Positions 1 through 33,070 of a stretch of DNA of 33,401 nt are shown here, one piece after another. How positions within the stretch are numbered: position 1 is the first letter of the stretch; the number at the start of each line of letters is the position of its first letter. The stretch lies in the IMG/VR virus record IMGVR_UViG_2724679239_000006; one strand, written 5' to 3'. The DNA is from a virus (Duplodnaviria > Heunggongvirae > Uroviricota > Caudoviricetes). The notes beneath the pieces were generated by a model, which saw only the letters and a list, made by a program, of their open reading frames with translations, did not search any database and had not been told where the DNA came from. Position numbers and translations under genes: made by a program.

Positions 1-1002
1 TTACCCTCTATTGTCAAAAGGGTTCAATTCAACTGCAGCCTCTAAATGACCTGGAGCAAAATGCGCATAACGCATAGTCATTTTTATATCGCTATGCCCC
101 AGTATTTTTTGCAACACAAGAATATTTCCTCCCCGCATCATAAAATGACTGGCAAACGTGTGACGTAGCACATGAGTTAATTGCCCATCAGGAAGCTCGA
201 TCTTCGCTCTCTTAATTGCAGCGTCAAAAGCCTCATAACATGGTGAAAATAACGCTCCTCGTTTTTTAGGAAGCATAGCCTGCAATTGAGGTGAAATCGG
301 TACAGTGCGGTTCTTCTTTCCTTTAGTTTTAACAAATGTGATTCGACCGGGCAGCACTTGAGATTGCTTTAATCCTTCAGCTTCACTCCACCGAGCACCA
401 GTCGCAAGCCCAATACGGACAACAACCCCCAAATCTTTATTCCGTGACTCATCACACGCAATCAGAAGGCGTTCAATCTCATCTACATACAGAAACGCCA
501 ATTCCTTTTCTTCCTCACGAAACTTGCGAATGCCAGTCAGGGGGTTTTCACCAGACCACTCCCCAAGGCGCTTCAGTTCGGCAAAAACAGCATGTAGATA
601 TGACTGCTCGCGATTAACGGTTGCTTCACTAAGTTTTTTCTTCCCCTTGGGATTCCATTCTCCTGATAACCTCCTTTCCCGATAAGTAGCAAACATATTT
701 TTGTCAAACTGAGAAGCAAATGGATCTCCCAGCCTGGAACAAATAGACTCAAGTTTGACTTTGCGCTCTGCACCAGAGGACAAGGTTTTACCGTACATCT
801 CAAACCAACGAGCAACCAACTCAGAAAGACGAGGACCAGAACCATCTTGAAACTCGTCTCCAACTCTACTATTCATTAAACGGCGCTCATAAGAGAGCGC
901 CTCACTTTTTGTCGCAAACTGTTTACGAATACGTTTTCCCGATGCCCCGTAAGGATAACATTCGCAAAGCCATTTACCTGATGGAATCTTACGAACCGAC
1001 AT
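1..1002 (-). CDS. int: Phage tyrosine integrase (P2 Int-like)
   Basis: 333-aa ORF ending at window position 1; C-terminal catalytic region with HVLRHTFASH...LGHSDIKMTMRYAHF (R-H-R-Y type motifs); sits at the prophage end next to the repressor as in P2. Confidence 0.9.
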   Translation of the reverse strand: MSVRKIPSGKWLCECYPYGASGKRIRKQFATKSEALSYERRLMNSRVGDEFQDGSGPRLSELVARWFEMYGKTLSSGAERKVKLESICSRLGDPFASQFDKNMFATYRERRLSGEWNPKGKKKLSEATVNREQSYLHAVFAELKRLGEWSGENPLTGIRKFREEEKELAFLYVDEIERLLIACDESRNKDLGVVVRIGLATGARWSEAEGLKQSQVLPGRITFVKTKGKKNRTVPISPQLQAMLPKKRGALFSPCYEAFDAAIKRAKIELPDGQLTHVLRHTFASHFMMRGGNILVLQKILGHSDIKMTMRYAHFAPGHLEAAVELNPFDNRG

Positions 1003-1007
1003 TTTAG

Positions 1008-1355
1008 TTACTTATCACATAAATCAAATGCAGCCTTAGTGACATCTCCCAGATTCTTTTTTAACCCTGGGGCGGCATCATTATCCAGCCAAAATGGATT
1101 ATTGTTATCTAACGGTAACGCACCAAATGTTTTACCTTTTATTCGAGCCAAACCTGTAAGCGCATATAACTTATTATCGTCAAAATTCATCACATAAGGA
1201 TTACCATCTAGACACTGTAACTGAACCTCATCAGTATTAAATGGCCATACCCCATTGAAACTCTCACGTTCAATATTTTTAAAAGGCATTGCGACGGCAG
1301 AAAAAGAAAACATAGATAAAAAAGTAACTAATAGTTGAACATTTTTTACTTTCAT
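1008..1355 (-). CDS. Hypothetical secreted protein (N-terminal signal peptide), lysogeny-side accessory gene
   Basis: 115-aa ORF; N-terminus MKVKNVQLLVTFLSMFSFSAVA looks like a Sec signal peptide; lies between the repressor operon and int. Confidence 0.55.
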   Translation of the reverse strand: MKVKNVQLLVTFLSMFSFSAVAMPFKNIERESFNGVWPFNTDEVQLQCLDGNPYVMNFDDNKLYALTGLARIKGKTFGALPLDNNNPFWLDNDAAPGLKKNLGDVTKAAFDLCDK

Positions 1356-1384
1356 ACCATTACCTCAATTTAGCTCAAGTAAGA

Positions 1385-2035
1385 TTACAAATTAAAAAAC
1401 ATCCTAGAAATGGCACCACCTACCACCCCCCCTACGCAGATAAAGAATATTATTTCTTTTGGATAAAGTCGGATTAATTCTGAAGCACGAAGTCGGACTT
1501 CTGGTAAGGTCGAATTCTCTGTGTTGCTTGATACCGATTGTTGCTCTAACCACGACAATGCAGACTGCAACTGAGAACGAGTAAGATCGTTTAAACGTCC
1601 TGTACCGAAATTGATATGGCAATACCGCAGAAGTTTTTGTCGAAGTCCACAGTCTTCACTGTTACGTAGTAATAAACTTACAAGAGCCTTACAGGCATCA
1701 TGATCTTTACATCGCTCAAGCATTGCATGCAGAAAACTCTCCGCTGTTTTATATTGATTTACTGTCATATCATCAATACCAGCTACACCAATCTCCGCAT
1801 GTACTTTTTGCCAAATAATAAACGCTTCAGTATTGCTAGCTTCTGCAATCGCAGCAACCAAGCTATTTAGCTCCTTACGCTGAGCCTTAAGCAAAGGGCG
1901 ATCGTCATCATCATTATTCGAAGGGATTGCGATATTGACGGTATGAGAACCATCATATCGCCCTATCTGAATATTCTTTTCGTGAAAATCACGCCCAGCA
2001 ACGCGATTGTTTGAACCGTTTGAGTTGACGGCCAT
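1385..2035 (-). CDS. Hypothetical protein with C-terminal transmembrane anchor, lysogeny-side accessory gene
   Basis: 216-aa ORF with its own RBS (GGAGGTGAC before ATG); hydrophobic C-terminus IIFFICVGGVVGGAISRMFF; N-terminal motif NNRVAGRDF mirrors the C-terminus of the upstream repressor. Confidence 0.6.
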   Translation of the reverse strand: MAVNSNGSNNRVAGRDFHEKNIQIGRYDGSHTVNIAIPSNNDDDDRPLLKAQRKELNSLVAAIAEASNTEAFIIWQKVHAEIGVAGIDDMTVNQYKTAESFLHAMLERCKDHDACKALVSLLLRNSEDCGLRQKLLRYCHINFGTGRLNDLTRSQLQSALSWLEQQSVSSNTENSTLPEVRLRASELIRLYPKEIIFFICVGGVVGGAISRMFFNL

Positions 2036-2050
2036 GTCACCTCCCTACTA

Positions 2051-2455
2051 TCACCTACCCTTAGTTTCGTTATAGTCACGCCCAGCGATACGGTTATTAC
2101 CGCCAGAAATATTTAACTCACGTCCTGATGGCTGAGTTTCCTTTTCACTGGCCGCACCTTTTAAAGCCCCGATCACCGCGTTTTTCACATCTAACGAAGC
2201 TGCTCGAAAGCGAGTAATCAACTCCTGCTCATCATCGTTATAAGTTTCAGGTGAGTGAATTCCCAACACAACATACTGAACATCAAGGCCAAAACGAGAC
2301 AGCGCTGCCAAATACGCAGCATCAGGAAAGCTATCTCCTTTCTCATATCTAAGCTGAGTTAGCTTTTTGACTCCACCAATGTCGCTCATAGCAACTTGAC
2401 TAAGTCCCAATCTTTCCCTTTCCTCACGCAACCTCTGACCAATATCATTTTTCAT
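2051..2455 (-). CDS. Prophage immunity repressor, HTH XRE/Cro-C1 family (P2 C analogue)
   Basis: 134 aa; N-terminal helix-turn-helix QRLREERERLGLSQVAMSDIGGVKKLTQLRYEKG; divergent from the early operon and co-oriented with int as in P2. Confidence 0.75.
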   Translation of the reverse strand: MKNDIGQRLREERERLGLSQVAMSDIGGVKKLTQLRYEKGDSFPDAAYLAALSRFGLDVQYVVLGIHSPETYNDDEQELITRFRAASLDVKNAVIGALKGAASEKETQPSGRELNISGGNNRIAGRDYNETKGR

Positions 2456-2464
2456 ACAAAAACC

Positions 2465-2493
2465 TTGACAGGTATCTTTTTTGATACCAAAAT
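2465..2493 (+). promoter_or_regulatory. Candidate early promoter (-35 TTGACA at 2465..2470) with 18-bp operator palindrome GGTATC-N6-GATACC (2471..2488)
   Basis: Consensus -35 hexamer followed directly by a perfect inverted repeat in the divergent repressor/early-operon intergenic region; -10 element weak (CAAAAT) and uncertain. Confidence 0.35.
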
Positions 2494-2530
2494 GATTTCA
2501 CGAGCTATTAGATGATCACAATATATCACT

Positions 2531-2737
2531 ATGAAACAAGTTCTTCACGATACCAGATCACGCATTCCGCGTAACACCGCCACAGGTCCAAGACTGGCAC
2601 TTCGGCTGTCCCTCGAGGAGCGAGCCGTCATTGATGAAATGGCAGCTAAAGAACAACGCTCATCCTCTAACATGGCGCGCATGATCTTCCTTCGCGGCCT
2701 AGAGCTAACCCAGAAAGAACAAAACAAATCTTCCTGA
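2531..2737 (+). CDS. Ribbon-helix-helix DNA-binding protein, first gene of early operon (Cro/Cox-role candidate)
   Basis: 68 aa; beta-strand plus two helices pattern PRLALRLSLEERAVIDEMAAKEQRSSSNMARMIFLRGLE typical of Arc/CopG/ParD-type RHH proteins. Confidence 0.5.
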   Translation: MKQVLHDTRSRIPRNTATGPRLALRLSLEERAVIDEMAAKEQRSSSNMARMIFLRGLELTQKEQNKSS

Positions 2738-2753
2738 TCAGGAGGCTAATGGG

Positions 2754-2957
2754 ATGTCAGGTATAACCATCAATATCAATGTGAATGCCCCCTATGTATC
2801 CCTGCAGAAATATGCAGAGATAACAGGTATCCCTCTTAATACATGCAAAAAGATGTTGGCTGACGGTCGAATTATTATCCGACCCAAACGCGCCAAAATG
2901 GAAAAGCCTGAAGTAAACCTTGTGGCGATGTTAAAAGACGCTTTGGCTAACAGCTAA
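2754..2957 (+). CDS. Small HTH protein, excisionase/AlpA-Cox-like
   Basis: 67 aa; YVSLQKYAEITGIPLNTCKKMLADGRIIIRP resembles excisionase/AlpA-type HTH; RBS AGGAGG upstream. Confidence 0.45.
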   Translation: MSGITININVNAPYVSLQKYAEITGIPLNTCKKMLADGRIIIRPKRAKMEKPEVNLVAMLKDALANS

Positions 2958-2978
2958 AACAATGAACAGAGCATCATC

Positions 2979-3329
2979 ATGAAAAAAAACACTAATATTC
3001 CATACTCCAAATTTCGTAATGGCGTAGAACGCCACGCTAACCGTTTCGCTATCAGTACATCACGTAGCAACACTCGCTACAGCCTGAGCGAAACACACGC
3101 TACACCTGATGGCCATCCCGTAAAACAAATTGGTGAACACACCTGGCTGATTGAGAAAGCTGGAATCGTGGTTCACAGATGCCAACGCAACCCATTTACC
3201 GGAAACCGCATTTTTGCTCTGAGCAACGGCGACAATCAGTTTGGACAGGATTTCACGTTGTACGAAGCTCTGCGCACGGTTGATCGTCTGCTGCGTGGAC
3301 AGAATTTCATTAAACAGGCTGATTTATAA
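2979..3329 (+). CDS. Hypothetical early protein
   Basis: 116-aa ORF in early operon; no recognisable motif. Confidence 0.45.
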   Translation: MKKNTNIPYSKFRNGVERHANRFAISTSRSNTRYSLSETHATPDGHPVKQIGEHTWLIEKAGIVVHRCQRNPFTGNRIFALSNGDNQFGQDFTLYEALRTVDRLLRGQNFIKQADL

Positions 3330-3339
3330 CAGGTGCTTT

Positions 3340-3618
3340 ATGACCAAAGACCATGCTCAGGGTGTATTTATCCGCTTTATTGATTTTCGCGGTGAGCTGT
3401 TGTTGCGCGCATCAGCTATTGATGGAGTGGTTCCGGTAGATAAAAGCACGGCCACTTACATTTATCTGAACGGCACACGCCTGACCGTAGAGATTCCATA
3501 TCAACCCGTATGCGAAATTATTAGAGAAGCTGAAAAAGCACGTCAGGTTAATAGCGATAAACCCTATCTCGAAATTATCTGCATGGATTCAGAAGCTGAA
3601 ATTCAGAAGGCAGATTAA
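3340..3618 (+). CDS. Hypothetical early protein
   Basis: ATG at 3340 (MTKDHAQ...) chosen within track ORF 3241..3618 to avoid overlap with upstream gene; 92 aa. Confidence 0.45.
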   Translation: MTKDHAQGVFIRFIDFRGELLLRASAIDGVVPVDKSTATYIYLNGTRLTVEIPYQPVCEIIREAEKARQVNSDKPYLEIICMDSEAEIQKAD

Positions 3619-3629
3619 AGGGCGTTGCG

Positions 3630-3872
3630 ATGGATAAAGAATATAAAACTCTCGTCAATAAAGCACTTGAGCGCTTTCATTTTCGCTTAAACGCATCAGG
3701 CGCTCATGCTGAACGCGCAGCCCGAGAGTCATTGACCAGAGCTATCAAGAGTATATACGACACGGCTTTTTACGTTGACGACCCGGACGCGCTCGACGAG
3801 CTTTCCGTACTCGTCTGCGCCGCAGAAAACGGGGACCATATTGAGCCATATAAACTGGGAAATATTGCATGA
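3630..3872 (+). CDS. Hypothetical early protein
   Basis: 80-aa ORF, compact spacing in early operon. Confidence 0.45.
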   Translation: MDKEYKTLVNKALERFHFRLNASGAHAERAARESLTRAIKSIYDTAFYVDDPDALDELSVLVCAAENGDHIEPYKLGNIA

Positions 3873-3982
3873 GTATATTTATCTCATGGCTTGTTCTGAT
3901 TATTTCGGTGGCCTGCGCTATTGGGATTATGCGAATTATTAATTCAGTAAAAAAGATTGAACGCTTTTTCACTGAAGAATAA
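3869..3982 (+). CDS. Small hydrophobic membrane peptide (37 aa)
   Basis: ATGA start/stop overlap with upstream ORF; translation MSIFISWLVLIISVACAIGIMRIINSVKKIERFFTEE is a single predicted TM helix; below the 60-aa cutoff of the ORF track. Confidence 0.3.
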   Translation: MSIFISWLVLIISVACAIGIMRIINSVKKIERFFTEE

Positions 3983-4068
3983 CCGCGCAAATAAGACTCC
4001 AGGTTAAATAAGAAAATGTGAAAACAATCCGCATTCGCGGAGGTATTCGCACACGCCAAGGAGGCGTA

Positions 4069-4272
4069 ATGGCAATTAAGCATTTTCCTGTCGTTCGTTT
4101 CACCTCCAGAGGACGTGAATACGAAGTTGACGAACGCCTGATTACCACAATCGACAAACACCGTTCAGAAAAGGATGCACATCACATCTATCTCACTGAC
4201 GGTACTTACTTCTGCGCCACCAACGTGGTGCAGGTGAATCTTATCAGACAGGTACAGGAGTCACGCAGATGA
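4069..4272 (+). CDS. Hypothetical early protein
   Basis: Strong RBS AAGGAGG 5 nt before ATG at 4069; 67 aa. Confidence 0.5.
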   Translation: MAIKHFPVVRFTSRGREYEVDERLITTIDKHRSEKDAHHIYLTDGTYFCATNVVQVNLIRQVQESRR

Positions 4273-4514
4273 CCATTCTGGACTACATCGCTGCCAATCC
4301 GGGTTGTAGCGGTGGAGAAATCGCCGCAGCACTGAATACACCAACCACAACCATTAATGCGGAGCTACGCCGTCTCTGGCGCAGCGGTTCAGTCATAAGA
4401 AAAGAGCGCAAAACAGGCGGTCGCTTTTCTTATCAGGTAAACCCGATGCCGTTTGGGTGTAGCAACCCTCTAACCCAGATGTTCAACCAGCTACTGAGAG
4501 AAATCAGAGCATGA
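4269..4514 (+). CDS. Putative winged-helix DNA-binding protein
   Basis: ATGA overlap with upstream ORF; 81 aa; GEIAAALNTPTTTINAELRRLWRSGSV resembles a wHTH recognition helix region. Confidence 0.45.
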   Translation: MTILDYIAANPGCSGGEIAAALNTPTTTINAELRRLWRSGSVIRKERKTGGRFSYQVNPMPFGCSNPLTQMFNQLLREIRA

Positions 4515-4655
4515 GCACCTCCAACTGCCGGAAACCACGTCGGGCTTCAGCAGCTCATCCGGCAGCAAAACAAACTCCGTTAATTCCTGTTCCGGGCCTT
4601 TCCTGCACCTTGCGGCAAGAGGCCTTCGCACATCTGCAACAAGAGGATTGCCGCA

Positions 4656-5021
4656 ATGATTCTCGCCGAAGACTTTTTTGATTACCTGCTGAAAACCGAG
4701 CGCGATTTTGGTATTCGCGTTCTCGACCGCTATGCAATGTATCTGAAATCACTGCCGGAACAGCAGCTCCCGGACGGCCAGATTGTTATTGACGGGCGCT
4801 ACATGGTTGGTAGCTGCCAGGAGGATTACACACTTTCCCGCATCGAAAGCGGCACGCCTTCCGTACTGGGTATTTACCAGCGAACTTCATCTCTGATTGC
4901 TGATGTAATTGCTGACAGCATTCGCATAACACACCGTTATGCCAGCACAGAGAGCACCATGCAGGAAATCCAGCGGCTGGCTACCGTCTGCCACAATGCA
5001 CTGAGCGGAAAGGCGGAGTAG
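4656..5021 (+). CDS. Hypothetical early protein
   Basis: 121-aa ORF immediately upstream of replication gene A. Confidence 0.45.
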   Translation: MILAEDFFDYLLKTERDFGIRVLDRYAMYLKSLPEQQLPDGQIVIDGRYMVGSCQEDYTLSRIESGTPSVLGIYQRTSSLIADVIADSIRITHRYASTESTMQEIQRLATVCHNALSGKAE

Positions 5022-5026
5022 TCGGC

Positions 5027-7810
5027 GTGGCAACGGAGTACATCAGAGACTGGCAACAACCACGCCATGCAGTCGGTCGCGAGGGAACGGGGGAGCCTGT
5101 CCGCCCCTCCCTTCTTTCTTCCTGGCTGGATGCCTACCGGGCAGAGAACGAGCGCCGCCAGGAAATGGCTGATGCGGCGTTCTCCGCTGCACCACTGGGC
5201 AATCTGATTAATAAAAGCCTGGACGCACAGGAAAAACAGGACAAAGTCATCACACTGGCAAGAGAAGCCAGAAAGCAGGCACGCGGTGCGGTGGATGAAG
5301 CCATGGCCTCGCTGCGTCTGCTGCCGTCCTATCTGCGTGATCCGCTTATCCGCCATCTCTCTTTCCTGCGCAAAAAACAGGAATCTGGCCACCAGAAAGG
5401 CAAAAAGAACCAGCAGGCGGAACGCTATGCGAGCGGAACCCTGCGCAAAATATTCGAACGCCTGGCCCGCACCGACCGTCGCTGGCTGACTCCGGGTTAT
5501 CGCTCCCTTGCCGGACGTGAACGTCTGGACGATTTGCTGTACCTGCCACAGCTCAACAAGCACCAGATACAGACGCTGGCCGTCATGACGGCGGCAATGT
5601 TCAGCAGCACCTTCGAAAAACTCTGCGATGGCTGTGGCGCGACCGACGGCGAGCTGACCATGGATATAACGCTGAAGGCGTATCAGATGCTGGCCCGCAT
5701 GGCGTTACATCTGCACACAGTGCCGCCGCATTATGACGCACTGACAACAGACAAAGACCGGAAGAACGAACCGGACACGGAACTGCTGCCGGGTGCAATC
5801 CTCCGCCTGACCTGTGCGGACTGGTGGAAACGCAAACTGTGGCTTTTACGTTGCGAATGGAGAGAGGAACAACTCCGCGCTGCCTGTCTGGTTTCCAGAA
5901 AAACATCACCCTATCTGAGTCAGGACGCATTAAGTGAATTTCGCGCACAGCGCGAGAAAACACGCGATTTCCTGAAAAGTTTCATGCTGGAAAATGAAGA
6001 CGGGTTCACGATTGATCTCGAGACAGTGTATTACGCGGGAGTAAGTAACCCGGTCCACCGTAAGGCAGAAATGATGGCCACCATGAAGGGACTGGAACTT
6101 CTGGCCGAAGCCCGTGGCGACAGAGCGGTGTTTCTGACTGTCACCTGCCCGTCAAAATACCACGCTACAACAGAGAACGGTCATCCGAATCCCAAATGGA
6201 ACGGCGCCACCATGCGCGATTCCAGTGATTACCTGGTTAACACTTTTTTTAAGGCGGTCCGCAAAAAACTGAATCGCGACGGCCTGCGCTGGTATGGCAT
6301 CCGCACGGTGGAGCCACACCATGACGGCACCGTGCACTGGCACATGATGGTCTTTGCACATCCTGAAGAAATCGACAGCATCGTGGACATCACCCGTGAT
6401 ATTGCCATTCGCGAAGACCGCCACGAGCTGGGCAATGACATAACTCCGCGCTTTAAGGCAGAGTACGTCGACGGTTCGAAAGGTACGCCGACCAGCTACA
6501 TCGCCACCTACATCGGAAAGAACCTGGACAGCCGCGCCGTGGATGGCATTGACCCGAAAACAGGCAAGCCACGCGTTGATCACGAAACCGGAAAATCAAT
6601 GGCCGAGAGCGTGGAACGCGCCATCGGCTGGGCGCGCCTTCACCGCGTCCGCCAGTTCCAGTTCTTTGGTATCCCCTCCCGTCAGGTATGGCGTGAACTC
6701 CGCCGCCTTGCCAGTCAGATGGCCCGCAACCCGGAAGGTCCACAACGTCTGGAAAATGACGCAATGGATGCGGTACTCGCTGCCGCTGATGCCGGGTGTT
6801 TTGCCACCTACATTGAGAAACAGGGTGGCGTACTTGTTCCACGCAAGGATTACCTGATTCGCACCGCCTACGACCTCGCAGAAGAGCTGAACGATTACGG
6901 CGAGCAAAGCGTACAGATTTACGGGATCTGGTCGCCACAAATCGGGGAATCTTCCCGCGTGTGCACGCACCCGGATAACTGGAAGCTGGTAAGACGTAAA
7001 CCGGAAGCGGAAGACAGCGCCCGCGAAAATGGTTTTGACCTTCAGGGCGGCCCTGCCGCCCCTTGGACTCGTGGCAATAACTGTCCCCGTGTACAGGAAA
7101 CGGACAACAACGGGACAGAACGGCCAGCACCGTGGCCGCAGCTTCCTGACGGCGTTGATGTGGATGAATGGATGCGCTCACTGAAACGGCACGAAAGCCG
7201 GGCGCTGATGCGTTCGCTGCGTGACAAACAGGCAAAAAACAACAGTGATGAAATGCAGAACTGGACACAGAGCCGCAAACAGCCGCGGCCTTTGCCTGAT
7301 AACCACGAGTTACTCGCTAAAGAATGGCGGGAGTCTGCCGAATCTCTCGGCCTGCATATCGGTGAACAACAGATGCAGCACCTGTTACGGGGCGGCAGTC
7401 TGTACGTTGACGGCAGCATCATTGCACCGCAGGGATTTGAAATTGTACGTAAACCGGATACCCGACCGGACAGCCGAATCACACAACTCTGGCAGCGCCT
7501 GAGCCGTAATCACGGCGTAAACAGCACGGAAATCCGCCATAACCCGGTTTCCAGCTATCTGAAACAGCTCGGGGCATCAGACCCAGAAGCCGCCGCACGC
7601 CTGGCATCCACAATTCAGCAGGACCAGAACACCATGAAAACACCCGTTACCGTACTTTCTGACATGCTGCGCACCATCCGTGACGCAGAGCACGCACAGA
7701 GAATCAGTGAAACCACTGAACGCGCCCGCCGCAAAGCAGACCTGCTGCGGTGGCCTGACCAGCGAAAACAAAAAACAGACAGAAACGGGATTCACAAATC
7801 CCGTAAATGA
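5027..7810 (+). CDS. A: Rolling-circle replication initiation protein (P2 gpA-like)
   Basis: 927-aa ORF (GTG start at 5027; true start uncertain); HUH-type motif GTVHWHMMVFAH and tyrosine-rich motif SYIATYIGKN typical of P2 A/phiX A-type relaxases. Confidence 0.85.
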   Translation: MATEYIRDWQQPRHAVGREGTGEPVRPSLLSSWLDAYRAENERRQEMADAAFSAAPLGNLINKSLDAQEKQDKVITLAREARKQARGAVDEAMASLRLLPSYLRDPLIRHLSFLRKKQESGHQKGKKNQQAERYASGTLRKIFERLARTDRRWLTPGYRSLAGRERLDDLLYLPQLNKHQIQTLAVMTAAMFSSTFEKLCDGCGATDGELTMDITLKAYQMLARMALHLHTVPPHYDALTTDKDRKNEPDTELLPGAILRLTCADWWKRKLWLLRCEWREEQLRAACLVSRKTSPYLSQDALSEFRAQREKTRDFLKSFMLENEDGFTIDLETVYYAGVSNPVHRKAEMMATMKGLELLAEARGDRAVFLTVTCPSKYHATTENGHPNPKWNGATMRDSSDYLVNTFFKAVRKKLNRDGLRWYGIRTVEPHHDGTVHWHMMVFAHPEEIDSIVDITRDIAIREDRHELGNDITPRFKAEYVDGSKGTPTSYIATYIGKNLDSRAVDGIDPKTGKPRVDHETGKSMAESVERAIGWARLHRVRQFQFFGIPSRQVWRELRRLASQMARNPEGPQRLENDAMDAVLAAADAGCFATYIEKQGGVLVPRKDYLIRTAYDLAEELNDYGEQSVQIYGIWSPQIGESSRVCTHPDNWKLVRRKPEAEDSARENGFDLQGGPAAPWTRGNNCPRVQETDNNGTERPAPWPQLPDGVDVDEWMRSLKRHESRALMRSLRDKQAKNNSDEMQNWTQSRKQPRPLPDNHELLAKEWRESAESLGLHIGEQQMQHLLRGGSLYVDGSIIAPQGFEIVRKPDTRPDSRITQLWQRLSRNHGVNSTEIRHNPVSSYLKQLGASDPEAAARLASTIQQDQNTMKTPVTVLSDMLRTIRDAEHAQRISETTERARRKADLLRWPDQRKQKTDRNGIHKSRK

Positions 7811-7880
7811 GCGAAAAACACGCCGCGATATATGAAACGCGCACAAAACAGGCAAAAGCGGGATTTCAGAATCCCGTAAA
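7785..7880. promoter_or_regulatory. Two copies of a 23-bp motif CGGGATT-N5-AATCCCGTAAA (7785..7807 and 7858..7880) bracketing the probable parM promoter
   Basis: Direct repeat of an internally palindromic motif; first copy overlaps the 3' end of gene A, second lies about 30 bp upstream of the parM start. Confidence 0.35.
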
Positions 7881-7911
7881 CGATTAATTAATCAACATAA
7901 GGAAAATCGAC

Positions 7912-8871
7912 ATGAAAATTTGCATCGACGACGGCTCCACCAACATCAAGCTGGCATGGACTGAGAACGGCGAACGCCGCAACGCCATCAGCCCGAACAG
8001 CTTCAAGTCGGAATGGTCTGCGCCGTTCGGTGGCACGCAGCCCGCGAACTACATGCTTGATGGCGTGCGCTATGGTTTTGATCCGGTCAGCGATCGCTTT
8101 GTCCAGACGACCGACACGCAATACCAGTACAGCGATGTGAATGTCATTGCCATTCATCACGCGCTGGTCAAATCAGGTATCACACCACAGGAAGTGGACG
8201 TGGTTGTCACTCTGCCACTGAGCGAGTATTTCGATACAAACGCACAGCCGGACATGGCCAACATCAACCGCAAAAAAGCGAATGTCCTGCGCCCTGTGGA
8301 GTACCAGAACGGTGAAGCATTCACTATCCGCAACGTGCGGGTTATGCCTGAATCCATTCCGGCTGGCTTTAAGGCACTGGCTGACATGAGTCCGTTTGAA
8401 TCTCTGCTGATTGTGGATTTAGGCGGAACAACGCTGGATGTGGCAAAGGTTCAGGGGCAACTGGCAGGCATCAGCCAGGTATTTTGCGATCCACATGTGG
8501 GCGTTTCCCTGATGACCGATGCCGTGTTGTCGGTGATGGCCGCCAACGGCATGCGTACCAGTCACCACGTCGCCAGTACCGTTATTGAACATCGTCACGA
8601 TGAAGCCTGGCTGCGCCGGCACATCCACAATGACGCGCATTACAACAGCCTGATGGCAGTTATTCGTGAAAAGGAGGAGACACTAAAACAACGCGTGATC
8701 CGCGCACTCGCGGGCTTTTCGGGTTACGGGCGGGTGCTGGTTGTCGGTGGAGGAGCGGAGATTGTGGCACCCGCAGTCCATGAAGTCTATGGAGTCAATG
8801 CGAATTTCATCACAGACGGGGTGCCACAGTTTGCTCTGGTTAACGGTCTGTACGCTATGGATAAGGAGTAA
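7912..8871 (+). CDS. parM: Actin-like segregation ATPase ParM/StbA
   Basis: 319 aa; N-terminus MKICIDDGSTNIKLAW and colinear conserved blocks (YSDVNVIAIHHAL, VMPESIPAG, LIVDLGGTTLD, VVGGGAE, LVNGLY) match plasmid R1 ParM as remembered. Confidence 0.85.
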   Translation: MKICIDDGSTNIKLAWTENGERRNAISPNSFKSEWSAPFGGTQPANYMLDGVRYGFDPVSDRFVQTTDTQYQYSDVNVIAIHHALVKSGITPQEVDVVVTLPLSEYFDTNAQPDMANINRKKANVLRPVEYQNGEAFTIRNVRVMPESIPAGFKALADMSPFESLLIVDLGGTTLDVAKVQGQLAGISQVFCDPHVGVSLMTDAVLSVMAANGMRTSHHVASTVIEHRHDEAWLRRHIHNDAHYNSLMAVIREKEETLKQRVIRALAGFSGYGRVLVVGGGAEIVAPAVHEVYGVNANFITDGVPQFALVNGLYAMDKE

Positions 8872-8877
8872 CCCTCC

Positions 8878-9189
8878 ATGGCGACATTAACCAGAAGAAT
8901 AAGTTTCTATCTGAAGCCAGCCGCCGTCAAGAACGAAGGCAAAGCATGCGACTGGCTGGACAGCCTTACACCAGAAGCCCGCAAAAGCGGCCAACGCGTG
9001 GCTTTTCTGGCCGGGCTGGCACTTCTGAAAATGAATCCGGCAGAGGCTTACCGACTGTCTGCATGGGCTGATGATGAGGCGTTATCAGTGACACAAACCA
9101 GGGCAGAACGCCACATGTTACAGCCAGCGCCCACCGCACAGATAACCAGTCAGATAGCCGGAAATATCCGGGCGTTATTTCCCGAATAA
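8878..9189 (+). CDS. parR: ParR-like centromere-binding adaptor (RHH)
   Basis: 103 aa directly downstream of parM; RRISFYLKPAAV...CDWLDSLTPEARKSGQRVAFLAGLAL parallels the R1 ParR N-terminal region. Confidence 0.7.
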   Translation: MATLTRRISFYLKPAAVKNEGKACDWLDSLTPEARKSGQRVAFLAGLALLKMNPAEAYRLSAWADDEALSVTQTRAERHMLQPAPTAQITSQIAGNIRALFPE

Positions 9190-9240
9190 CACAACATCAG
9201 GGCGCTGGCCAGTAGGGGCAAGGCTATAAATAGATGAGCA

Positions 9241-9263
9241 AAACGCCCTCCTCCAGGGCGTTT
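9241..9263 (+). terminator. Rho-independent terminator downstream of parR
   Basis: 9-bp stem AAACGCCCT/AGGGCGTTT with 5-nt loop followed by a T-rich tract. Confidence 0.5.
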
Positions 9264-9270
9264 ATTTCAA

Positions 9271-9300
9271 TGCACAATAGTGCACAAATTTGCACAATTT
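9271..9300. repeat. Three tandem 10-bp iterons TGCACAAWWW
   Basis: TGCACAATAG TGCACAAATT TGCACAATTT in helical phase; a fourth GTGCACAAA near 9362 and a GGATCCGT direct repeat at about 9341..9360. Confidence 0.4.
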
Positions 9301-9552
9301 TTTTGAACGACTTTTTACCCTTCCGGCCCGCGTGGTGGCTGGATCCGTCAAGGATCCGTGCGTGCACAAAAAAACGCGTTTTTTCTGCGCGCAGGTGACG
9401 GGGGAACAGCCCGCGTTTCAGGGGGTAAATAGCATTCCCCGAGCGATGTCGCAGCGACACAACAGAATGGCTGTATTTCTCACGCTGAGCGTGAAAAAGA
9501 CGTAAGGGTTTTTGATTTGATGGGTTGAAAGGTAAGGCCGTCAAAATCGCAC

Positions 9553-9575
9553 TGAGGCGGCGAGAACATACAGTC
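9553..9575. other. Candidate cos (cohesive end) site
   Basis: GAGGCGGCGAGAACA resembles the remembered P2 cohesive-end sequence GGCGAGGCGGGGAAAGCAC (12 of 15 positions) and lies about 150 bp beyond the portal gene 3' end, as in P2. Confidence 0.25.
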
Positions 9576-9671
9576 AACGCGGTGGGATTGCGTAAGAGTC
9601 TGACCGTCGATGGTGGCGATAAACTGGAAGGCGTCGTGAAATTATCTGACTGATACAGGAGCTGGAGAGTC

Positions 9672-9694
9672 GGGGCATAAATTTTTTATGCCCC
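9672..9694. terminator. Strong hairpin terminator between the cos region and the portal gene 3' end
   Basis: 10-bp stem GGGGCATAAA/TTTATGCCCC with 3-nt loop, A/T tracts on both sides. Confidence 0.5.
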
Positions 9695-9721
9695 GGCGAA
9701 GCAGCAGACAAGCGAAGCGCG

Positions 9722-10768
9722 TCAGGCTGTGGGCTGGGTGTCTAACAGTGCGTAAGGGTTAAAGCGGATCACCTCTTCGCCCAGCCAGTCATTGATGTGC
9801 TTCATGGCCTCCATGACGGGCATCAGCTCGTTAATTGCGTAAACCCGCGCGGCCTTCTCCACATCACCAAACGCACTTTTTTCACCCGGCATCGCCCCCA
9901 TCAGTTGCGGCGGAACGCGGTGCGCAGCCAGCACATCATCACGGGATGCCGCCTTAACATTCATGAACTCATCCTTTGCGGTGATCTGCTGGAACGGCAA
10001 AATTTGCCCCCCCTCTTTGCCCCCGTTGGGCGCATGAATGAGCACGTTTTTAAACGCACCACCACCACGTGCACCCTGTAGCGTTTCTTTCAGGGAGTCC
10101 ATGCTTTCGCGGTTTACCTGCGCTGCACCGATGTAGATGATGCACCCGGCGTGGGATCCGTTGTCGTAATACAGTTTTCTGAACATGTCCGCCGAATGAG
10201 ACAGGCTGGCCGAGAGTAATGCGCCGAGATATTCCGGCATGCCGTAGATTTCCTGGTTAATGTCAGGATTCATCAGGTGGCACACTTTACCAGGGCGAAA
10301 CTGAAACGCGTCCTTACCATCCTGCACATACCACCATGATTCAAGATCGCTTCCGCGTCGCATGTATTTCGCCAGGGCGTGCCGTAATTTAAGCGGTTCG
10401 CCGAGCATATTGCTTCGAAGCTCAAGGAATGCGTTACCGAACACAAACCAGTCCAGCGCCAGCGCCGAGAAATCCTGCCGGGAAAGCAACGGGTGCGGGA
10501 TGTAGCAACCGAGTAATACATTGCGCTTAAAGTAAAGCGCAGACTGATGCCAGGACGTTTGCCGGGCAGCTCTTGCCAGACCGTACCAGTCCACCGGGGT
10601 TTCATACCACCGCCCGTTATCAGCACAGTACATATTGTCCAGCAGGTCATGCCCAGTCAGGCGATAAGGACCATCAAATGTGAATGCACTGAGCGACGAT
10701 TCTTTCCTGAGCACATCAGCGAGATCAATGCGTGAACTCATGCGCACTTTTTTATTTTTTCTGCTCAT
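9722..10768 (-). CDS. Q: Portal protein (gpQ)
   Basis: 348 aa; position, size and orientation match P2 Q; ATGA overlap with the terminase gene stop. Confidence 0.9.
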   Translation of the reverse strand: MSRKNKKVRMSSRIDLADVLRKESSLSAFTFDGPYRLTGHDLLDNMYCADNGRWYETPVDWYGLARAARQTSWHQSALYFKRNVLLGCYIPHPLLSRQDFSALALDWFVFGNAFLELRSNMLGEPLKLRHALAKYMRRGSDLESWWYVQDGKDAFQFRPGKVCHLMNPDINQEIYGMPEYLGALLSASLSHSADMFRKLYYDNGSHAGCIIYIGAAQVNRESMDSLKETLQGARGGGAFKNVLIHAPNGGKEGGQILPFQQITAKDEFMNVKAASRDDVLAAHRVPPQLMGAMPGEKSAFGDVEKAARVYAINELMPVMEAMKHINDWLGEEVIRFNPYALLDTQPTA

Positions 10769-13510: not shown

Positions 13511-13533
13511 TAAGACAAAGGAGCAAATTTTTT

Positions 13534-14586: not shown

Positions 14587-14595
14587 TCAACTCAC

Positions 14596-19502: not shown

Positions 19503-19505
19503 ATC

Positions 19506-20402: not shown

Positions 20403-20925
20403 TTCACTGTTACCACCATCAGCCAGCAATTTCATGCGTTGTGCCGAAGCCGTCGGAACGCGCATTACAGACATTCCGGTAGACCTCAACACGCTGTGGT
20501 CGCCGGACACATGCCCGGTGCATCTGCTGCCTTATCTCGCCTGGGCGTTTTCCGTTGACCGCTGGGACCGCAACTGGCCGGAGGAAACAAAGCGCCAGGT
20601 GATTCGCGATGCGTGGCTGATACACCGACACAAGGGGACCATCAGCGCACTGCGCCGGGCCATTGAGCCGCTGGGATACCTCATTCGCGTGTCTGAGTGG
20701 TGGGAGTTCGGCGGAGAACCGGGAACATTTACCGTTGAAGTCGGCACGCTGGACAGCGGTGTGACGGAGGAAATGTATCTGGAAATGGAGCGGTTGATTG
20801 CTGATGCCCGCCCGGTCAGCCGCCACATGACAGGACTGAATATCATTCAGGAAATCCCGGGGGATATTTTCGCAGCGGCGGCAACTTATGACGGTGAAGT
20901 TATCACCATTTATCCAGGCGATTAA
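20395..20925 (+). CDS. I: Baseplate/tail protein (gpI)
   Basis: ATG at 20395 overlapping the J stop; 176 aa. Confidence 0.8.
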   Translation: MSNSLLPPSASNFMRCAEAVGTRITDIPVDLNTLWSPDTCPVHLLPYLAWAFSVDRWDRNWPEETKRQVIRDAWLIHRHKGTISALRRAIEPLGYLIRVSEWWEFGGEPGTFTVEVGTLDSGVTEEMYLEMERLIADARPVSRHMTGLNIIQEIPGDIFAAAATYDGEVITIYPGD

Positions 20926-20927
20926 GC

Positions 20928-23156: not shown

Positions 23157-23158
23157 TT

Positions 23159-23692
23159 ATGATGCATTTAAAAAATATTAAAGCAGGAAACCCCAAAACC
23201 GTAGAACAATATAAATTAACACGACAATTTGGCGTTGTCTGGTTGTATTCTGATGACGATAAAAACTGGTATGAGGAACAGAAAAACTTTCAGGAAGATA
23301 CAATAAAATTTGCTTACACTGCCGATGGAATCATTGTGGCTGTAGATAAGGATGTATCGACAATTAATCCCGAAGGTTTAAGCGTTGTTGAGGTTCCTGA
23401 TATTACAGCCAATAGGCGGGTCGATATTTCTGGTAACTGGATGTTCAAAGATGGCGCAGTGATAAAGCGGGAATATACCGAAGAAGAACAGAGACAACAG
23501 GCGGAAAATGAGAAGCAAAACCTGTTACAACTCGTCAGGGATAAAACTCAGCTATGGGATTCTCAGCTACGACTTGGAATTATTTCTGCTGAGAATAAAC
23601 AAAAATTGACCGAGTGGCTGCTCTACGCGCAGAAAGTAGAGTCTACGGATACCTCCGTCCTGCCAGTCACGTTCCCCGAACAACCAGAATGA
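23159..23692 (+). CDS. G: Tail fibre assembly chaperone (gpG)
   Basis: 177 aa; N-terminus [21 protein letters not shown]; directly after H. Confidence 0.85.
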   Translation: MMHLKNIKAGNPKTVEQYKLTRQFGVVWLYSDDDKNWYEEQKNFQEDTIKFAYTADGIIVAVDKDVSTINPEGLSVVEVPDITANRRVDISGNWMFKDGAVIKREYTEEEQRQQAENEKQNLLQLVRDKTQLWDSQLRLGIISAENKQKLTEWLLYAQKVESTDTSVLPVTFPEQPE

Positions 23693-23695
23693 GAG

Positions 23696-23720
23696 AAGGC
23701 CCGTTCGGGCCTTATTTTTT
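23696..23720 (+). terminator. Hairpin terminator between convergent chaperone genes
   Basis: AAGGCCC-GTTC-GGGCCTT followed by a T-run. Confidence 0.5.
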
Positions 23721-24255
23721 ATTCAGGCTTTTGTGGCCATTCAGGATTTGCCGTATCCACGCGGCTGAGCAGAACGCTGTAGCGTTCCCAGCCATCCAGC
23801 CGTGTACGTTCCTCATCTGTTGCCAGATTCATCCTGACGGCACGTTCCAGCAGCCGGATGACTGATTCAGCTTCGGAAAGCAAAGCTGCTTTTTGTGATT
23901 CAGCCTGCTGTTGTAATTCATCTTCTGTATAGACTCTTTTAATTACAGCACCATCCTTAATCATCCAGTTGCCGGAAATATCAGCGCGTCGGTTTACCGT
24001 AATATTGGGTAACTCAATAACACTCATTCCCTCTGGATTAATCAGGGATGCGTCTTTCTCTATGCAGCAAATAATACCCTCCTGGTTATATGCCACTTTT
24101 AACGTGTCTGGCTGGAAGTTTTTTTGTTCCTCATACCAGTTCTTACCTTCTTCCGACCATAACCAGACAACATCAAATTCTTTTGTAAGTTGATACTGTT
24201 CGATAGTTTTTGGATTTCCTGCTTTAATATTTTTTAAATGCTGCATATTAAGCAC
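23719..24255 (-). CDS. Alternative tail fibre assembly chaperone (G-prime), inverted orientation
   Basis: 178 aa; clearly paralogous to gpG ([21 protein letters not shown] versus [21 protein letters not shown]). Confidence 0.85.
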
Positions 24256-25217
24256 GTCCTACATTGTACCACTGACCATTAATATATTTCTGAACAGGCG
24301 CATAGACAGGCCACTCCCAGTCGTCATCAAAGTTACCACCTGTAAGAACACACCCCGCAGGGAGTGTTCCACCTTCGCCACCCCATTTTATTCCGCTCTG
24401 GTTAGCTCCCATGCGAACGTCACGCACATAGCGGGAATCAAAATTTCCATAATTTCCGGGAATAATTTGTGAACCACAAAGCCAGTTCCCGTTATTGTCC
24501 ATATACGCCTGACCGTCAGTACCATTGGCTGTCCTTGAGTTATTAATCATGTAGATGCCAAATTGCTTGTTCCCCAGTCCACCTATCATGAACTTGCGGT
24601 CAGCGTGATTCTGGCGAAGCAACGCCTGAGCGCTATCAGTGTTAACTATATTTTTCCCAAAGATAGCGTTGTTATCGCGCATCTGAATCCACATACCATT
24701 ACTGCTGTTAATAGCAAAACGGTCTGAAAGCGTCTCCCCTGAAACATTAAGGCCACGCCCCATCGAAACAGCGCCAGTAGCGTTATTAATCCATAATGGC
24801 CTTAATCCGTTATAAGTCCCCATGTTGTCACCGGAGTTTGTCAACATGAAGTATGTGTTTGAACCATCATTACGAATAAAGAATCCGTAATTACCATAAG
24901 CAATACGAAGGCCGTTTGCTGATTTTGATATGACTTCGCCATTTACAATGGCATTAACAAGAATATTTAGCGCATCCCATTTCAGCGTCATCAGGTCTTT
25001 TGTTGTTGTGCTTTGTTTGCTTCTCCATTTGAAATATTCATTGCCGTTATCTCCCGTTTCAAACCACATGAATGAATCAGTGTCACCATCGGCATCATTT
25101 TTAAATCCAATCTTCGCCCAGTCAGAATTCCGAATCCAGGCAAGGATTGAGTCGTATTCAAAAGTAAGCCCACCGGACAAGGTATCGCCTGTCTTTTGGA
25201 CGGCGTTACCAGCCTTG
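24248..25217 (-). CDS. Alternative tail fibre C-terminal segment (H-prime), promoterless and startless until inversion
   Basis: Open frame runs through the right crossover site (track ORF 24248..25276); contains [10 protein letters not shown] matching [10 protein letters not shown] at the H crossover; C-terminal motif [10 protein letters not shown]. Confidence 0.8.
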
Positions 25218-25242
25218 TTTACCGTTTCCTGCAAACCGAGGT
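25218..25242 (-). other. Invertase crossover site (right inverted repeat)
   Basis: Exact reverse complement of 22201..22225. Confidence 0.65.
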
Positions 25243-25305
25243 TTTTGATAATGGTCGTTTCTGGCCCACATGGCATGATTTGTGCTTTTGAGCGGGAGAT
25301 TCAAT

Positions 25306-25905
25306 GTGCTGATTGGCTATGTACGCGTGTCAACAAATGACCAGAACACGGATTTGCAACGCAATGCGCTCAATAGCGCAGGATGTGAACTGATTTTTGA
25401 AGATAAAATCAGCGGAACAAAGTCAGCCAGACCGGGATTGAAAAAACTGCTCAGAACACTGTCAGAAGGCGATACGCTCGTTGTCTGGAAACTGGACAGG
25501 CTGGGCAGAAGCATGAAACACCTGATCACACTGATTGAGGAATTACGGGAAAAAGGTGTCAATTTTCGTAGTCTGACGGACAGCATTGACACATCAACAC
25601 CCATGGGGCGCTTCTTTTTTCACGTCATGGGGGCTTTAGCTGAAATGGAACGCGAACTGATAGTTGAACGTACCAGAGCAGGACTGGCAGCAGCCCGCGC
25701 ACAGGGGCGCATTGGTGGGCGTCGTCCGAAACTGACAAAAGAGCAACATGAGCAAATAGCAAGGCTGATTAAAAACGGCCATGACAGAAAACAACTGGCC
25801 ATAATTTACGGCGTTGGTATATCGACGATTTATCGTTACCACCCCGTGGGAGAATCAACCGGGACAACTGAGAAGACCAGAGGAAACAAAAAACCGCTAA
25901 TCTGA
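25306..25905 (+). CDS. Serine DNA invertase, Gin/Cin/Pin/Hin family
   Basis: GTG start giving MLIGYVRVSTNDQNTDLQRNAL; catalytic serine motif, GDTLVVWKLDRLGRSMKHL, and C-terminal HTH; near-identical in pattern to Gin/Pin as remembered. Confidence 0.9.
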   Translation: MLIGYVRVSTNDQNTDLQRNALNSAGCELIFEDKISGTKSARPGLKKLLRTLSEGDTLVVWKLDRLGRSMKHLITLIEELREKGVNFRSLTDSIDTSTPMGRFFFHVMGALAEMERELIVERTRAGLAAARAQGRIGGRRPKLTKEQHEQIARLIKNGHDRKQLAIIYGVGISTIYRYHPVGESTGTTEKTRGNKKPLI

Positions 25906-31500: not shown

Positions 31501-31657
31501 AGTTCCAGCCCCTTGTATCCGTTAAATGATTCGGCAACAATCATCACCCACCACGCGCGTAATCTCATCCCTGCGCCGTTCTTGCCGCCCGGCGACAACA
31601 AAAAGCAGTAACCCCGCCCGCACACACATGCGACCATGCTGCACAGGGAGGGAGCCG
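31501..31657. promoter_or_regulatory. Divergent intergenic region between FI (leftward) and D (rightward), with 19-bp palindrome ATGATT-N7-AATCAT at 31526..31544
   Basis: Only non-coding interval available to drive both the tail operon and D in this arrangement; palindrome seen directly. Confidence 0.3.
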
Positions 31658-32767
31658 ATGATTGACACCACCATGCAACTGTTCAACCAGAGTACTGACC
31701 CCGTGAAGATGCCTGATTTTGATATTCTCGCGGAGGGGAAAACGCTGTCCGGTGTGACAGAACGCCTGATGAGCCTGTCACTGACCGACAACCGGGGATT
31801 TGAAGCAGACCAGCTAACCATCACGCTGGATGATGCTGATGGTCAGTTGCAGTTGCCGCCACGGGGCGCTCGCCTGACGGTTCTCATTGGCTGGAAAGGC
31901 GAACCGCTGACAGAAAAAGGCACTTACATTGTTGATGAAATTGCTCATGAAGGACCGCCCGACAGACTGACCATTTCAGCCAGAAGCGCAGATTTTCGGG
32001 ATGAATTTAACGTCAAGCGCGAAGTATCCTGGCATGATGTGACCGTTGAACGCGTGGTGTCTGCAATTGCTCACCGATACGGCCTGAAACCGCAAATCAG
32101 CGAAATGCTGATGGATATTGAAATCGACCACGCTGACCAGACCGAAGAAAGCGACATGTCCTTCCTTACACGCATGGCGGAAATGCTGGGCGCAATCACC
32201 ACGGTAAAAAGCGGTAATCTGTTATTCATCATGCCAGGTGGTGGCGTGAACGCGCAGGGAAAACCATTACCATCGTTTGCCATCACACGCAGCAGCGGCG
32301 ATCGCCATCAGTTTCGCATTGCTGACCGCGAGGCGTATACGGGGGTACGCGCTTACTGGCTTGATCTTAATTACGGGAAAAAGAAAAAAGTCAGCGTGAA
32401 ACGCCGCAAACCGCCAAAACCCAAAAAGGAGAAAAGCAGCAGCCGTGAAGGTGACTATATGGAAGGTGCGGAAGGCAACGTGTTTGTGTTACGCAAGACT
32501 TATCAGAACGAGCAGGCAGCAAGACGCGCAGCGGCGGCAAAGTGGCAGCAGCTACAACGCGGAGCCGCATCATTCTCCATCACGCTGGCGCGTGGACGCG
32601 CAGAACTCTACCCCGAAATGCATGGCACGGTAACAGGATTTAAAAGCGAGATTGATAATCAGGACTGGATTATTGCAAAAGCCGAGCACTCCATTGATAA
32701 CAGCGGCTTTACCACGCAGCTTGAGCTTGAGGCAAAAATCCCGGAATGGATAGCAGAAACAGAGTGA
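31658..32767 (+). CDS. D: Tail protein D (gpD)
   Basis: ATG at 31658 with RBS GGGAGGGAG; 369 aa; position before ogr. Confidence 0.85.
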   Translation: MIDTTMQLFNQSTDPVKMPDFDILAEGKTLSGVTERLMSLSLTDNRGFEADQLTITLDDADGQLQLPPRGARLTVLIGWKGEPLTEKGTYIVDEIAHEGPPDRLTISARSADFRDEFNVKREVSWHDVTVERVVSAIAHRYGLKPQISEMLMDIEIDHADQTEESDMSFLTRMAEMLGAITTVKSGNLLFIMPGGGVNAQGKPLPSFAITRSSGDRHQFRIADREAYTGVRAYWLDLNYGKKKKVSVKRRKPPKPKKEKSSSREGDYMEGAEGNVFVLRKTYQNEQAARRAAAAKWQQLQRGAASFSITLARGRAELYPEMHGTVTGFKSEIDNQDWIIAKAEHSIDNSGFTTQLELEAKIPEWIAETE

Positions 32768-32809
32768 GCAACTTAGAATAGCGGCAGCACCACGTTAAGG
32801 GAGGTCGCT

Positions 32810-33070
32810 ATGTTCCGTTGTCCGCTTTGTGGCGCATCTGCCCGAATCCGCACCAGTCGTTCGGAAAATGATTCAGATACCGTACGGAAAAAATATTACC
32901 AGTGTAACAACCTGGAATGCGGCGTATGCTTCTCAACACTGGAGGCTTTCCATAAATTCACATCGAAACACGCCCCCGGCGTTCACTCTTCAGAGGGCAT
33001 CCCGTGGAATGAGCTACCAGCTTCGCACAGGGGAAACAACCAGATGAGTTTGCCATTACCTCAGAATTAA
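32810..33070 (+). CDS. ogr: Ogr/Delta-family zinc-finger late transcription activator
   Basis: 86 aa; MFRCPLCG...YYQCNNLEC C4 zinc finger as in P2 Ogr; RBS GGGAGG. Confidence 0.85.
   Translation: MFRCPLCGASARIRTSRSENDSDTVRKKYYQCNNLECGVCFSTLEAFHKFTSKHAPGVHSSEGIPWNELPASHRGNNQMSLPLPQN

Follow-up and report, generated by a model that had tools for sequence, protein, structure and literature searches.

A P88-like prophage in the tRNA-Leu gene leuZ of Escherichia albertii and its attachment sites

Tyrosine integrases split a tRNA gene upon integration, so that the incoming island restores the gene and the displaced fragment remains, as set out in the account of Islander-type tRNA islands (PMC4383910). 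The anticodon loop is a recognised sublocation of the crossover (bioRxiv 10.1101/2020.11.02.365908, citing Williams 2002), and duplications of the tRNA target of up to 121 bp have been described with Phage_Finder (PMC1635311). The tRNA-Leu(UAA) gene leuZ is listed among the integration sites of integrative elements in E. coli O145:H28 (PMC7067040), and phage P88, which is inducible from its host, has a reported attP core of 14 bp, GCCACCCGAAGGTG (PMC5285337). Here, we describe an element related to these systems, contained for the most part in a 33,401-nucleotide stretch of viral DNA (IMG/VR record IMGVR_UViG_2724679239_000006; hereafter the window), which begins at the stop codon of an integrase gene, int, and ends with a hok toxin gene. 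An earlier note, made from the window alone, held that these letters could not settle whether the element is an integrated prophage or a circular, phage-plasmid-like replicon. That judgment was sound for the window itself, and the flanking sequence decides for chromosomal integration. With a probability of roughly 0.92, we read the window as 96.6% of a P2-family temperate prophage of 34.6 kb with a P88-like (Xuanwuvirus-like) backbone, inserted in E. albertii leuZ, at the end of the glyW-cysT-leuZ operon, between yecA and pgsA.

Chromosomal setting and ends of the element

The window is an exact string, 100% identical, within the 506-kb E. albertii contig BBWA01000006.1 (GCA_001515005.1), at 415142-448542. 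The contig was reached through exact matches to two proteins encoded in the window, the tape-measure protein and the 927-aa gpA. Two stretches of it (L037 on the left, L025 on the right) were joined to give 44,204 bp, and coordinates outside the window are given throughout as extrapolated window coordinates. A 48-mer from the left flank had the E. albertii type strain as its sole match among 185,579 species representatives, and the flanks are 99.64% identical to the type strain and about 92% identical to E. coli. The chromosomal genes yecA, tyrP and ftnA lie on the left, and those for tRNA-Leu(UAA) (leuZ), tRNA-Cys (cysT) and tRNA-Gly (glyW), followed by pgsA, uvrC and uvrY, lie on the right. 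E. coli H3, whose prophage is 100% identical at the int end, was rejected as the source of the window: the right half of its prophage is only about 91% identical and carries extra cargo.

In the source contig, a perfect 126-bp direct repeat brackets the element. Its attL copy (attachment site at the left end) occupies -231..-106 (4743-4868 of L037) and ends 106 bp left of base 1, and its attR copy occupies 34343-34468 (4763-4888 of L025) and starts 942 bp past the window end. A perfect repeat of this length, with its copies 34.5 kb apart, is not explicable by chance. The insertion measures 34,574 bp, starting 106 bp left of base 1 and ending 1,067 bp past base 33401. Matches to the block within the window are at most 12 nt long and no more than chance would give, and a single 10-mer is all that the two ends of the window have in common. 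Bases 1-3 read TTA, the reverse complement of the int TAA stop, and base 1 is the last base of that stop. No attachment site lies within the window. The earlier note was right that the window opens exactly at the int stop codon and that the int-proximal site must lie just outside, and the extension of the flanks and repeat search that it proposed yielded the block. It had placed the far end of the element at the late-gene activator gene ogr (position 33070), and here it fell short, since the insert reaches far beyond.

ARAGORN called an intact tRNA-Leu(UAA) gene, leuZ, at 34414-34500 (minus strand), followed by the genes for tRNA-Cys and tRNA-Gly and by pgsA; this tRNA overlaps only the attR copy, and no tRNA was called at attL. 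A scan of Rfam at gathering thresholds matched only the three tRNAs. Counted along the tRNA, the block opens at nucleotide 33, where the 7-nt anticodon loop begins, two bases ahead of the anticodon itself. It contains the last 55 nt of leuZ and 71 bp of downstream sequence with the operon terminator, a hairpin followed by a run of T. Between the attL block and the int stop lie 106 bp, which form the P' arm (the int-side arm of the phage attachment site, attP).

The same junctions recur in other genomes. The attL junction is present in 19 related lysogens; it is shared by every fetched locus with an identical Int, just as all fetched loci whose Ogr is identical share the attR junction. In E. 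coli H3, the first two bases of the block are GC (host type) at attL and AT (phage type) at attR, a pattern that fits attL as the original chromosomal copy and attR as the copy brought by the phage. Among 36 attL, attR and attB (unoccupied chromosomal site) copies, only block positions 1-2 were informative for mapping the crossover; the four other variants were singletons with no partner site from the same genome.

The unoccupied site, which the earlier note had suggested looking for in a related genome, was found in E. coli K-12 as well as in the type strain of E. albertii. With the insert removed, 6,078 bp of sequence aligned to the type strain NBRC 107761 as a single gapless high-scoring segment pair (HSP) at 99.64% identity. 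The reconstructed empty site also aligned in one piece to K-12, in which leuZ-cysT-glyW-pgsA comes immediately after yecA. Of the 5,426 complete E. coli genomes, 3,782 have one place that spans 80% or more of the reconstructed site, and in occupied E. coli genomes the match to the empty site starts exactly at the first base of the block. The empty sites lack the hok gene, a 93-aa open reading frame (ORF93) and the non-coding stretch up to attR, and all three thus belong to the insert. Of the outcome that the earlier note had set against its own account, namely chromosomal flanking genes, att direct repeats and a hok gene outside them, the first two were found, and hok lies inside the repeats.

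We also searched IMG/VR for the joined form of the attachment site, using a pattern in which the P-arm/block and block/P'-arm junctions stand about 126 bp apart. One contig matched, UViG_2548876853_000002, which is 34,888 bp long, a length in keeping with the 34,574 bp predicted for the excised form. A reconstructed attP of 1,699 bp, comprising the hok stop, ORF93, the P arm (the arm on the other side of the block), the block, the P' arm and the 3' part of int, aligned to this contig in one HSP at 96.2% identity. The contig has a single copy of the block, identical at 126/126 positions, and the gene order int, attP, ORF93, hok, ogr, gpD, with hok between ogr and attP. When the contig was scanned for circularity with its first 40 bases, there was one match in that contig among the matches listed, which covered at least 120 relatives.

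The integrase itself is of the HP1/P2 tyrosine type (333 aa, ATG start; 1..1002, minus strand) and matches the Pfam families Int_N (E=8.5e-32) and Phage_integrase (E=2.5e-22) as well as phrog_1. It is 59% identical to the integrase of Haemophilus phage HP1 over its full length (E=7e-140) and matches the catalytic domain of that protein in the PDB (1AIH) with E=4.6e-75. In the alignment with HP1 Int, the catalytic R, HxxR, H and Y are conserved (ATGARWSE, HVLRHTF, LGHS and MRYAH), while the Peduovirus integrases are only about 37-40% identical to the window Int. The gene is present in 599 of the 5,426 complete E. coli genomes, and 600 of the 601 places that match the int end in these genomes are chromosomal.

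Several observations concern leuZ as a site. It is a shared hot spot: phages mEp390 (where the block is annotated as attP) and Fostie and the Pectobacterium phage ZF40 carry the same tRNA-Leu block. In two other loci, L033 (BBVU01000028.1; positions 1-1850) and L017 (11100-18000), a second integrase-bearing element stands directly left of the attL block and replaces yecA. These left-hand elements are tandem insertions at the leuZ site.

Arm sites and a model of integration

Both arms of attP contain short repeated units that we predict to be arm-type binding sites for Int. In the P' arm, the candidates are ATTGTCAC at -23..-16 and ATCGCCAC at -10..-3, and TTGTCAC units occur there beside those of ATCGCCAC; in the P arm, three candidates stand in tandem at 34299-34331, just left of the block and with 11-bp spacing (ATCGCCACACC, ATCGCCACTCC and ACCGCCATTGC). 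The candidate Int-binding units also include ACCGCCAT. The shared motif, WYCGCCAB, is arranged in tandem in both arms and in one orientation, with four strict matches in the arms against 0.14 expected at the element-wide rate. In the relative with the attP form, UViG_2548876853_000002, the arm units are conserved and nearby positions vary. A further 9-mer, CTATTGTCA, was read from the sequence at 7..15 (plus strand), with a second copy in the P' arm at -25..-17, and is conserved in the same relative. The copy at 7..15 may be the innermost part of the P' arm of attP, which would then reach into the 3' end of int.

The homology of Int, the likeness to the HP1 attP and the arm motifs together suggest where strand exchange takes place and what excision requires. 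The attP carries a 126-bp copy of host sequence, which begins with the anticodon loop of leuZ and takes in the 3' end of the tRNA and a further 71 bp, operon terminator included, and the HP1-type Int recombines it with attB inside the block. Strand exchange most likely takes place within the 7-nt anticodon loop, on the edge of the block nearest to int, by analogy with the related systems; Hauser and Scocca are said to have mapped the HP1 strand exchange to the anticodon loop. After integration, the original 3' half of leuZ is left as a dead fragment beside int, at attL, whereas at attR, on the opposite side of the element, the phage-borne copy makes leuZ whole again and supplies its terminator. 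Because leuZ stands at the end of its operon and a terminator comes with the phage copy, expression of the tRNAs should be unaffected. The resulting prophage reads attL, the 106-bp P' arm, int, the immunity genes and cox, early genes, gpA, the parMR pair, structural genes, gpD, ogr, hok, ORF93, a decayed hok locus, the P arm and attR.

Excision would restore the circular attP form and is expected to need a directionality factor in addition to Int. The candidate is a Cox-like protein encoded at 2754..2957 (plus strand), which matches phrog_575, 'Cox-like excisionase and repressor', with E=1.2e-27.

Weighing the alternatives

Several points weigh against reading the element as a P88-like prophage integrated at leuZ. 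The attP form is known from a relative that is 92-96% identical and comes from another strain, and the same junction would result if the assembler had collapsed a head-to-tail tandem lysogen. When the phage collection was searched with the reconstructed attP, no record spanned the P arm, block and P' arm; the matches were only of the attL type or came from further phages with the block in common. Among the sequenced virion genomes of that collection, none carries this int together with its attP, and the closest record deposited as a phage with this int, Escherichia phage 520873 (95% identical to the window), is a decayed prophage. We rejected phage 520873 as a source of attP: it is a prophage whose record takes in part of yecA, with an IS100 insertion and split genes. 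In the crossover mapping, the exchange is confined to the right of block position 2, within positions 3-126, and the arm-site motif is fairly frequent elsewhere in the element (41 matches in 44 kb, both strands). Finally, any present activity of the prophage is presumptive.

This last point bears on the alternative that survives best, although we think it unlikely: the element could be a defective, immobile remnant, in which the repeats are a historical scar and neither excision nor particles are produced. Some relatives at the same site have indeed decayed (phage 520873, with its IS100 and split genes; L020, with a large deletion; and several loci in which gpD is shortened), and the window gpA is 4 aa shorter than in its closest relatives. 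However, that difference is in frame, both att blocks are 100% identical, and the P2-type genes for morphogenesis, lysis, replication and control are all full-length ORFs in the expected order. In addition, the tail-fibre segment is inverted between near-identical prophages, which implies recent invertase activity.

Two further readings make use of the plasmid-like genes of the element. The window encodes a ParM-like and a ParR-like protein (7912-9189) and a hok locus with a mok-like ORF and a sub-threshold match to sok, all of which are classical plasmid functions and gave the suspicion in the earlier note some ground. P88-like phages with ParM/ParR and hok might therefore have two lysogenic modes, either integration through a swappable int/attP cassette (here of the HP1 type, at leuZ) or persistence as a circular episome stabilised by partition and hok. 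We regard such dual lysogeny as improbable; if true, it could explain both unit-length contigs of the attP form and a 34.5-kb 'plasmid' record of a backbone relative.

Very improbable for the window itself is the reading in which the element is a phage-plasmid with a lifestyle like that of P1, N15 or SSU5, a circular low-copy replicon stabilised by ParM/ParR and hok/sok, and the window a linearised circle. The unit-length contig of the attP form in IMG/VR would suit it, as would the record pZ1323PEC0009-2, a backbone relative with another int that was deposited as a plasmid, circular and 34,461 bp long, with the order ogr, hok, cargo and then int across the origin of the record. Spontaneous induction or tandem lysogens, however, account equally well for circular unit-length records. 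The window lies inside a chromosomal contig of 506 kb, between yecA and leuZ-pgsA-uvrC and within att repeats, and these chromosomal flanks led us to reject a phage-plasmid for this copy. All fetched loci with an identical Int or an identical Ogr are likewise chromosomal and at leuZ, 600 of the 601 int places in complete E. coli genomes are on chromosomes, and the element has the full set of integrase, Cox-like protein and attP. Among the window genes, the P2-type gpA rolling-circle endonuclease was the only replication protein recognised, in an analysis that included no search aimed at plasmid Rep proteins.

Least credible of all is a composite, in which the repeat stems from an unrelated element and the P2-like genome uses another site, so that the 34.6 kb would comprise two elements in tandem: leuZ is a hot spot shared with mEp390, Fostie and ZF40, and L033 and L017 do have a second element left of attL, but in the source contig attL is immediately adjoined by yecA and attR by leuZ, the window has one integrase and no third copy of the block, and the attP-form contig is of unit length with the same gene content.

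The integrated prophage thus has exact ends, with hok, ORF93 and the decayed hok locus placed between ogr and attP. It is a case of ordinary P2-family prophage biology and leaves current understanding unchanged, since textbooks already describe integration into tRNA genes that are thereby restored. The practical value lies in the accurate delimitation of prophages at the yecA-leuZ hot spot, and in a caution that hok and parMR beside phage genes do not imply a plasmid.

Gene content and comparison with HP1, P88 and P2

The window has the P2-type gene set in the P2-type order, as judged from its ORFs and from precomputed Pfam families on identical proteins. The portal and terminase genes diverge from those for scaffold, capsid and small terminase; the lysis genes follow, and then the baseplate genes V-W-J-I, the tail fibre, FI, FII, E, T, U, D and ogr, and gpA is also present. 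The head and tail families comprise Phage_portal, Terminase_6, Phage_GPO_N, Phage_cap_P2, Phage_term_smal, Phage_GPL, Phage_tail_X, P2_Phage_GpR and Phage_tail_S, and the baseplate and tail families Phage_base_V, GPW_gp25, Baseplate_J, Tail_P2_I, Phage_sheath_1, Phage_tube, Phage_P2_GpE, PhageMin_Tail, Phage_P2_GpU and Phage_GPD; Ogr_Delta and Phage_GPA were matched as well.

Two cargo genes on the minus strand separate int from the repressor gene (1008..2035; phrog_2950 and phrog_5825). The first encodes a DUF2511/YebY-like protein (1008-1355; Pfam and PHROG matches), and the second a 216-aa product resembling membrane proteins (1385-2035; phrog_5825); the pair is conserved along with the same int cassette. 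A helix-turn-helix (HTH) protein encoded at 2051..2455 (minus strand) is the candidate immunity repressor, with matches to HTH_31 and HTH_3, both below the Pfam curated cut-offs, and to the transcriptional repressor families phrog_8, phrog_4 and phrog_3.

The gpA gene (5027-7810; GTG start) encodes 927 aa. Its nearest relatives, 99.9% identical in DNA, encode 931 aa, a difference of 12 bp in frame, and no more than three contigs in the public collection encode the identical 927-aa protein. Between gpA and the cos/portal region lie the genes for a ParM-like actin ATPase (7912-8871, plus strand; phrog_691, with StbA_N/ParM_N on identical proteins) and a ParR/StbB-like adaptor (8878-9189, plus strand; phrog_2515, with Plasmid_stab_B on identical proteins), which are conserved in P88-like relatives. 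The stretch from parR to the portal gene (9190-9721) is short and has no called gene in the window, and probably contains cos. In relatives it is variable, with Ead/Ea22-like, zf-C4_ClpX, or AAA and S8-peptidase genes.

The tail-fibre segment is invertible. About 3.06 kb (22189-25251) is in the opposite orientation in the near-identical prophage L022, between collinear flanks, and is adjoined by a gene for a Gin/Cin-type invertase (25282-25905, plus strand). With the G segment of Mu and the C segment of P1, the segment shares 82-83% identity, and it has alternative fibre tips and chaperones at 23159-25276.

At the right end of the window, ogr (32810..33070, plus strand) encodes the zinc-finger activator of the late genes (Ogr_Delta, E=2.4e-14, above the Pfam cut-off). 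The junction between gpD and ogr (32768-32809) is only 42 bp long and free of cargo in the window, but is a cargo hot spot in relatives, with TIR-domain and SIR2 genes in E. coli H3 and a 217-aa ORF in many others (compared over L001 40939-43372 and L002-L010 9004-10000). Downstream of ogr, hok (33261..33401, plus strand) encodes a 46-aa Hok/Gef toxin (HOK_GEF, E=3.1e-7, above the Pfam cut-off), and the window closes on the stop codon of this gene. The spacer between the two genes, put at about 190 bp in the earlier note, is exactly 190 bp (33071-33260). The hok leader region (33115..33249, plus strand) matches the Rfam sok family RF01794 weakly, with 40.9 bits (gathering score, 59; E=1.6e-7), and a mok-like ORF of 70 aa (33131-33343, plus strand) overlaps hok.

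Between ogr and attR, the element thus contains hok, ORF93 (33593-33874, minus strand; phrog_27544) and a non-coding P arm of about 470 bp. A decayed second hok locus, recognised by its similarity to the window hok, lies in this arm about 100 bp from the attR block (34107-34243; approximately 4988-5124 of L025, reverse). It consists of 110 bp that are 75% identical to the hok leader (33093-33202), followed by 35 bp that are 80% identical to the 3' coding part of hok; the toxin start and N-terminus have been deleted. Together, hok, ORF93 and the decayed locus are phage cargo within the att boundaries.

In its backbone, the window resembles P88 (Xuanwuvirus; KP063541 / NC_026014), to which it is 92.4% identical over 3027-22230, or 77% of a query consisting of positions 1-25000. 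The product of identity and coverage is about 71% when computed on these first 25 kb, with the last 8.4 kb outside the query; the convention of the International Committee on Taxonomy of Viruses for a genus is about 70% identity over the whole genome. The two have in common gpA, ParM/ParR, the P2-type head, tail and lysis genes, ogr and hok. In contrast, the int and immunity module of P88 is unrelated to the window from 1 to about 3026, the tail-fibre and cargo regions differ too, and the attP core reported for P88 differs from the leuZ block. Like P88, many phages show no alignment with the window before about 3012-3027. The same backbone was also seen in L030 (CP117600.1) with a 334-aa integrase and a Phage_Cox gene, inserted next to pdxB rather than leuZ. 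The same backbone with another int at another site, together with the break in the P88 alignment, shows that the int/immunity cassette sets the integration site, and the block of int, cargo, repressor and cox (1-3026) is a swappable cassette.

With P2 (Peduovirus), the element shares the map order ogr, attP, int, C, cox and the combination of a tyrosine integrase with a directionality factor of the Cox type, but it has extra cargo, hok and ORF93, between ogr and attP. The P2 core is short and is not known to lie in a tRNA gene. The Islander-type islands (PMC4383910) have a tyrosine integrase at one end, a split tRNA gene that is restored and a displaced fragment that marks the other end, all as here; the block in our element is long by comparison (126 bp) because the terminator is duplicated too.

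The closest likeness of the attachment site is to HP1 (Peduoviridae, Hpunavirus; NC_001697). In the HP1 record, attP is annotated at 251-694 and int at 698-1711, so that attP stands directly beside the int stop, as it does here. The 3' part of tRNA-Leu(UAA) in the HP1 attP (segment 481-536) aligns with the block, ends in the same GGGATTTTAAA at the anticodon loop and then diverges into the P' arm, and both sites have more host-like sequence beyond the tRNA-Leu part and tandem WYCGCCAB motifs in each arm. They differ in host (Haemophilus versus Escherichia), in the downstream part of the block, which contains a complete tRNA-Lys gene in HP1 and the operon terminator here, and in the length of the P' arm (about 160 bp versus 106 bp); the remaining genome of the window is P88/P2-like, unlike that of HP1. 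Thus, the Int of a common Escherichia prophage is closely related to the HP1 integrase, whose structure has been characterised, and makes the same use of the orthologous tRNA-Leu(UAA) gene, which offers a ready model for its attachment sites.

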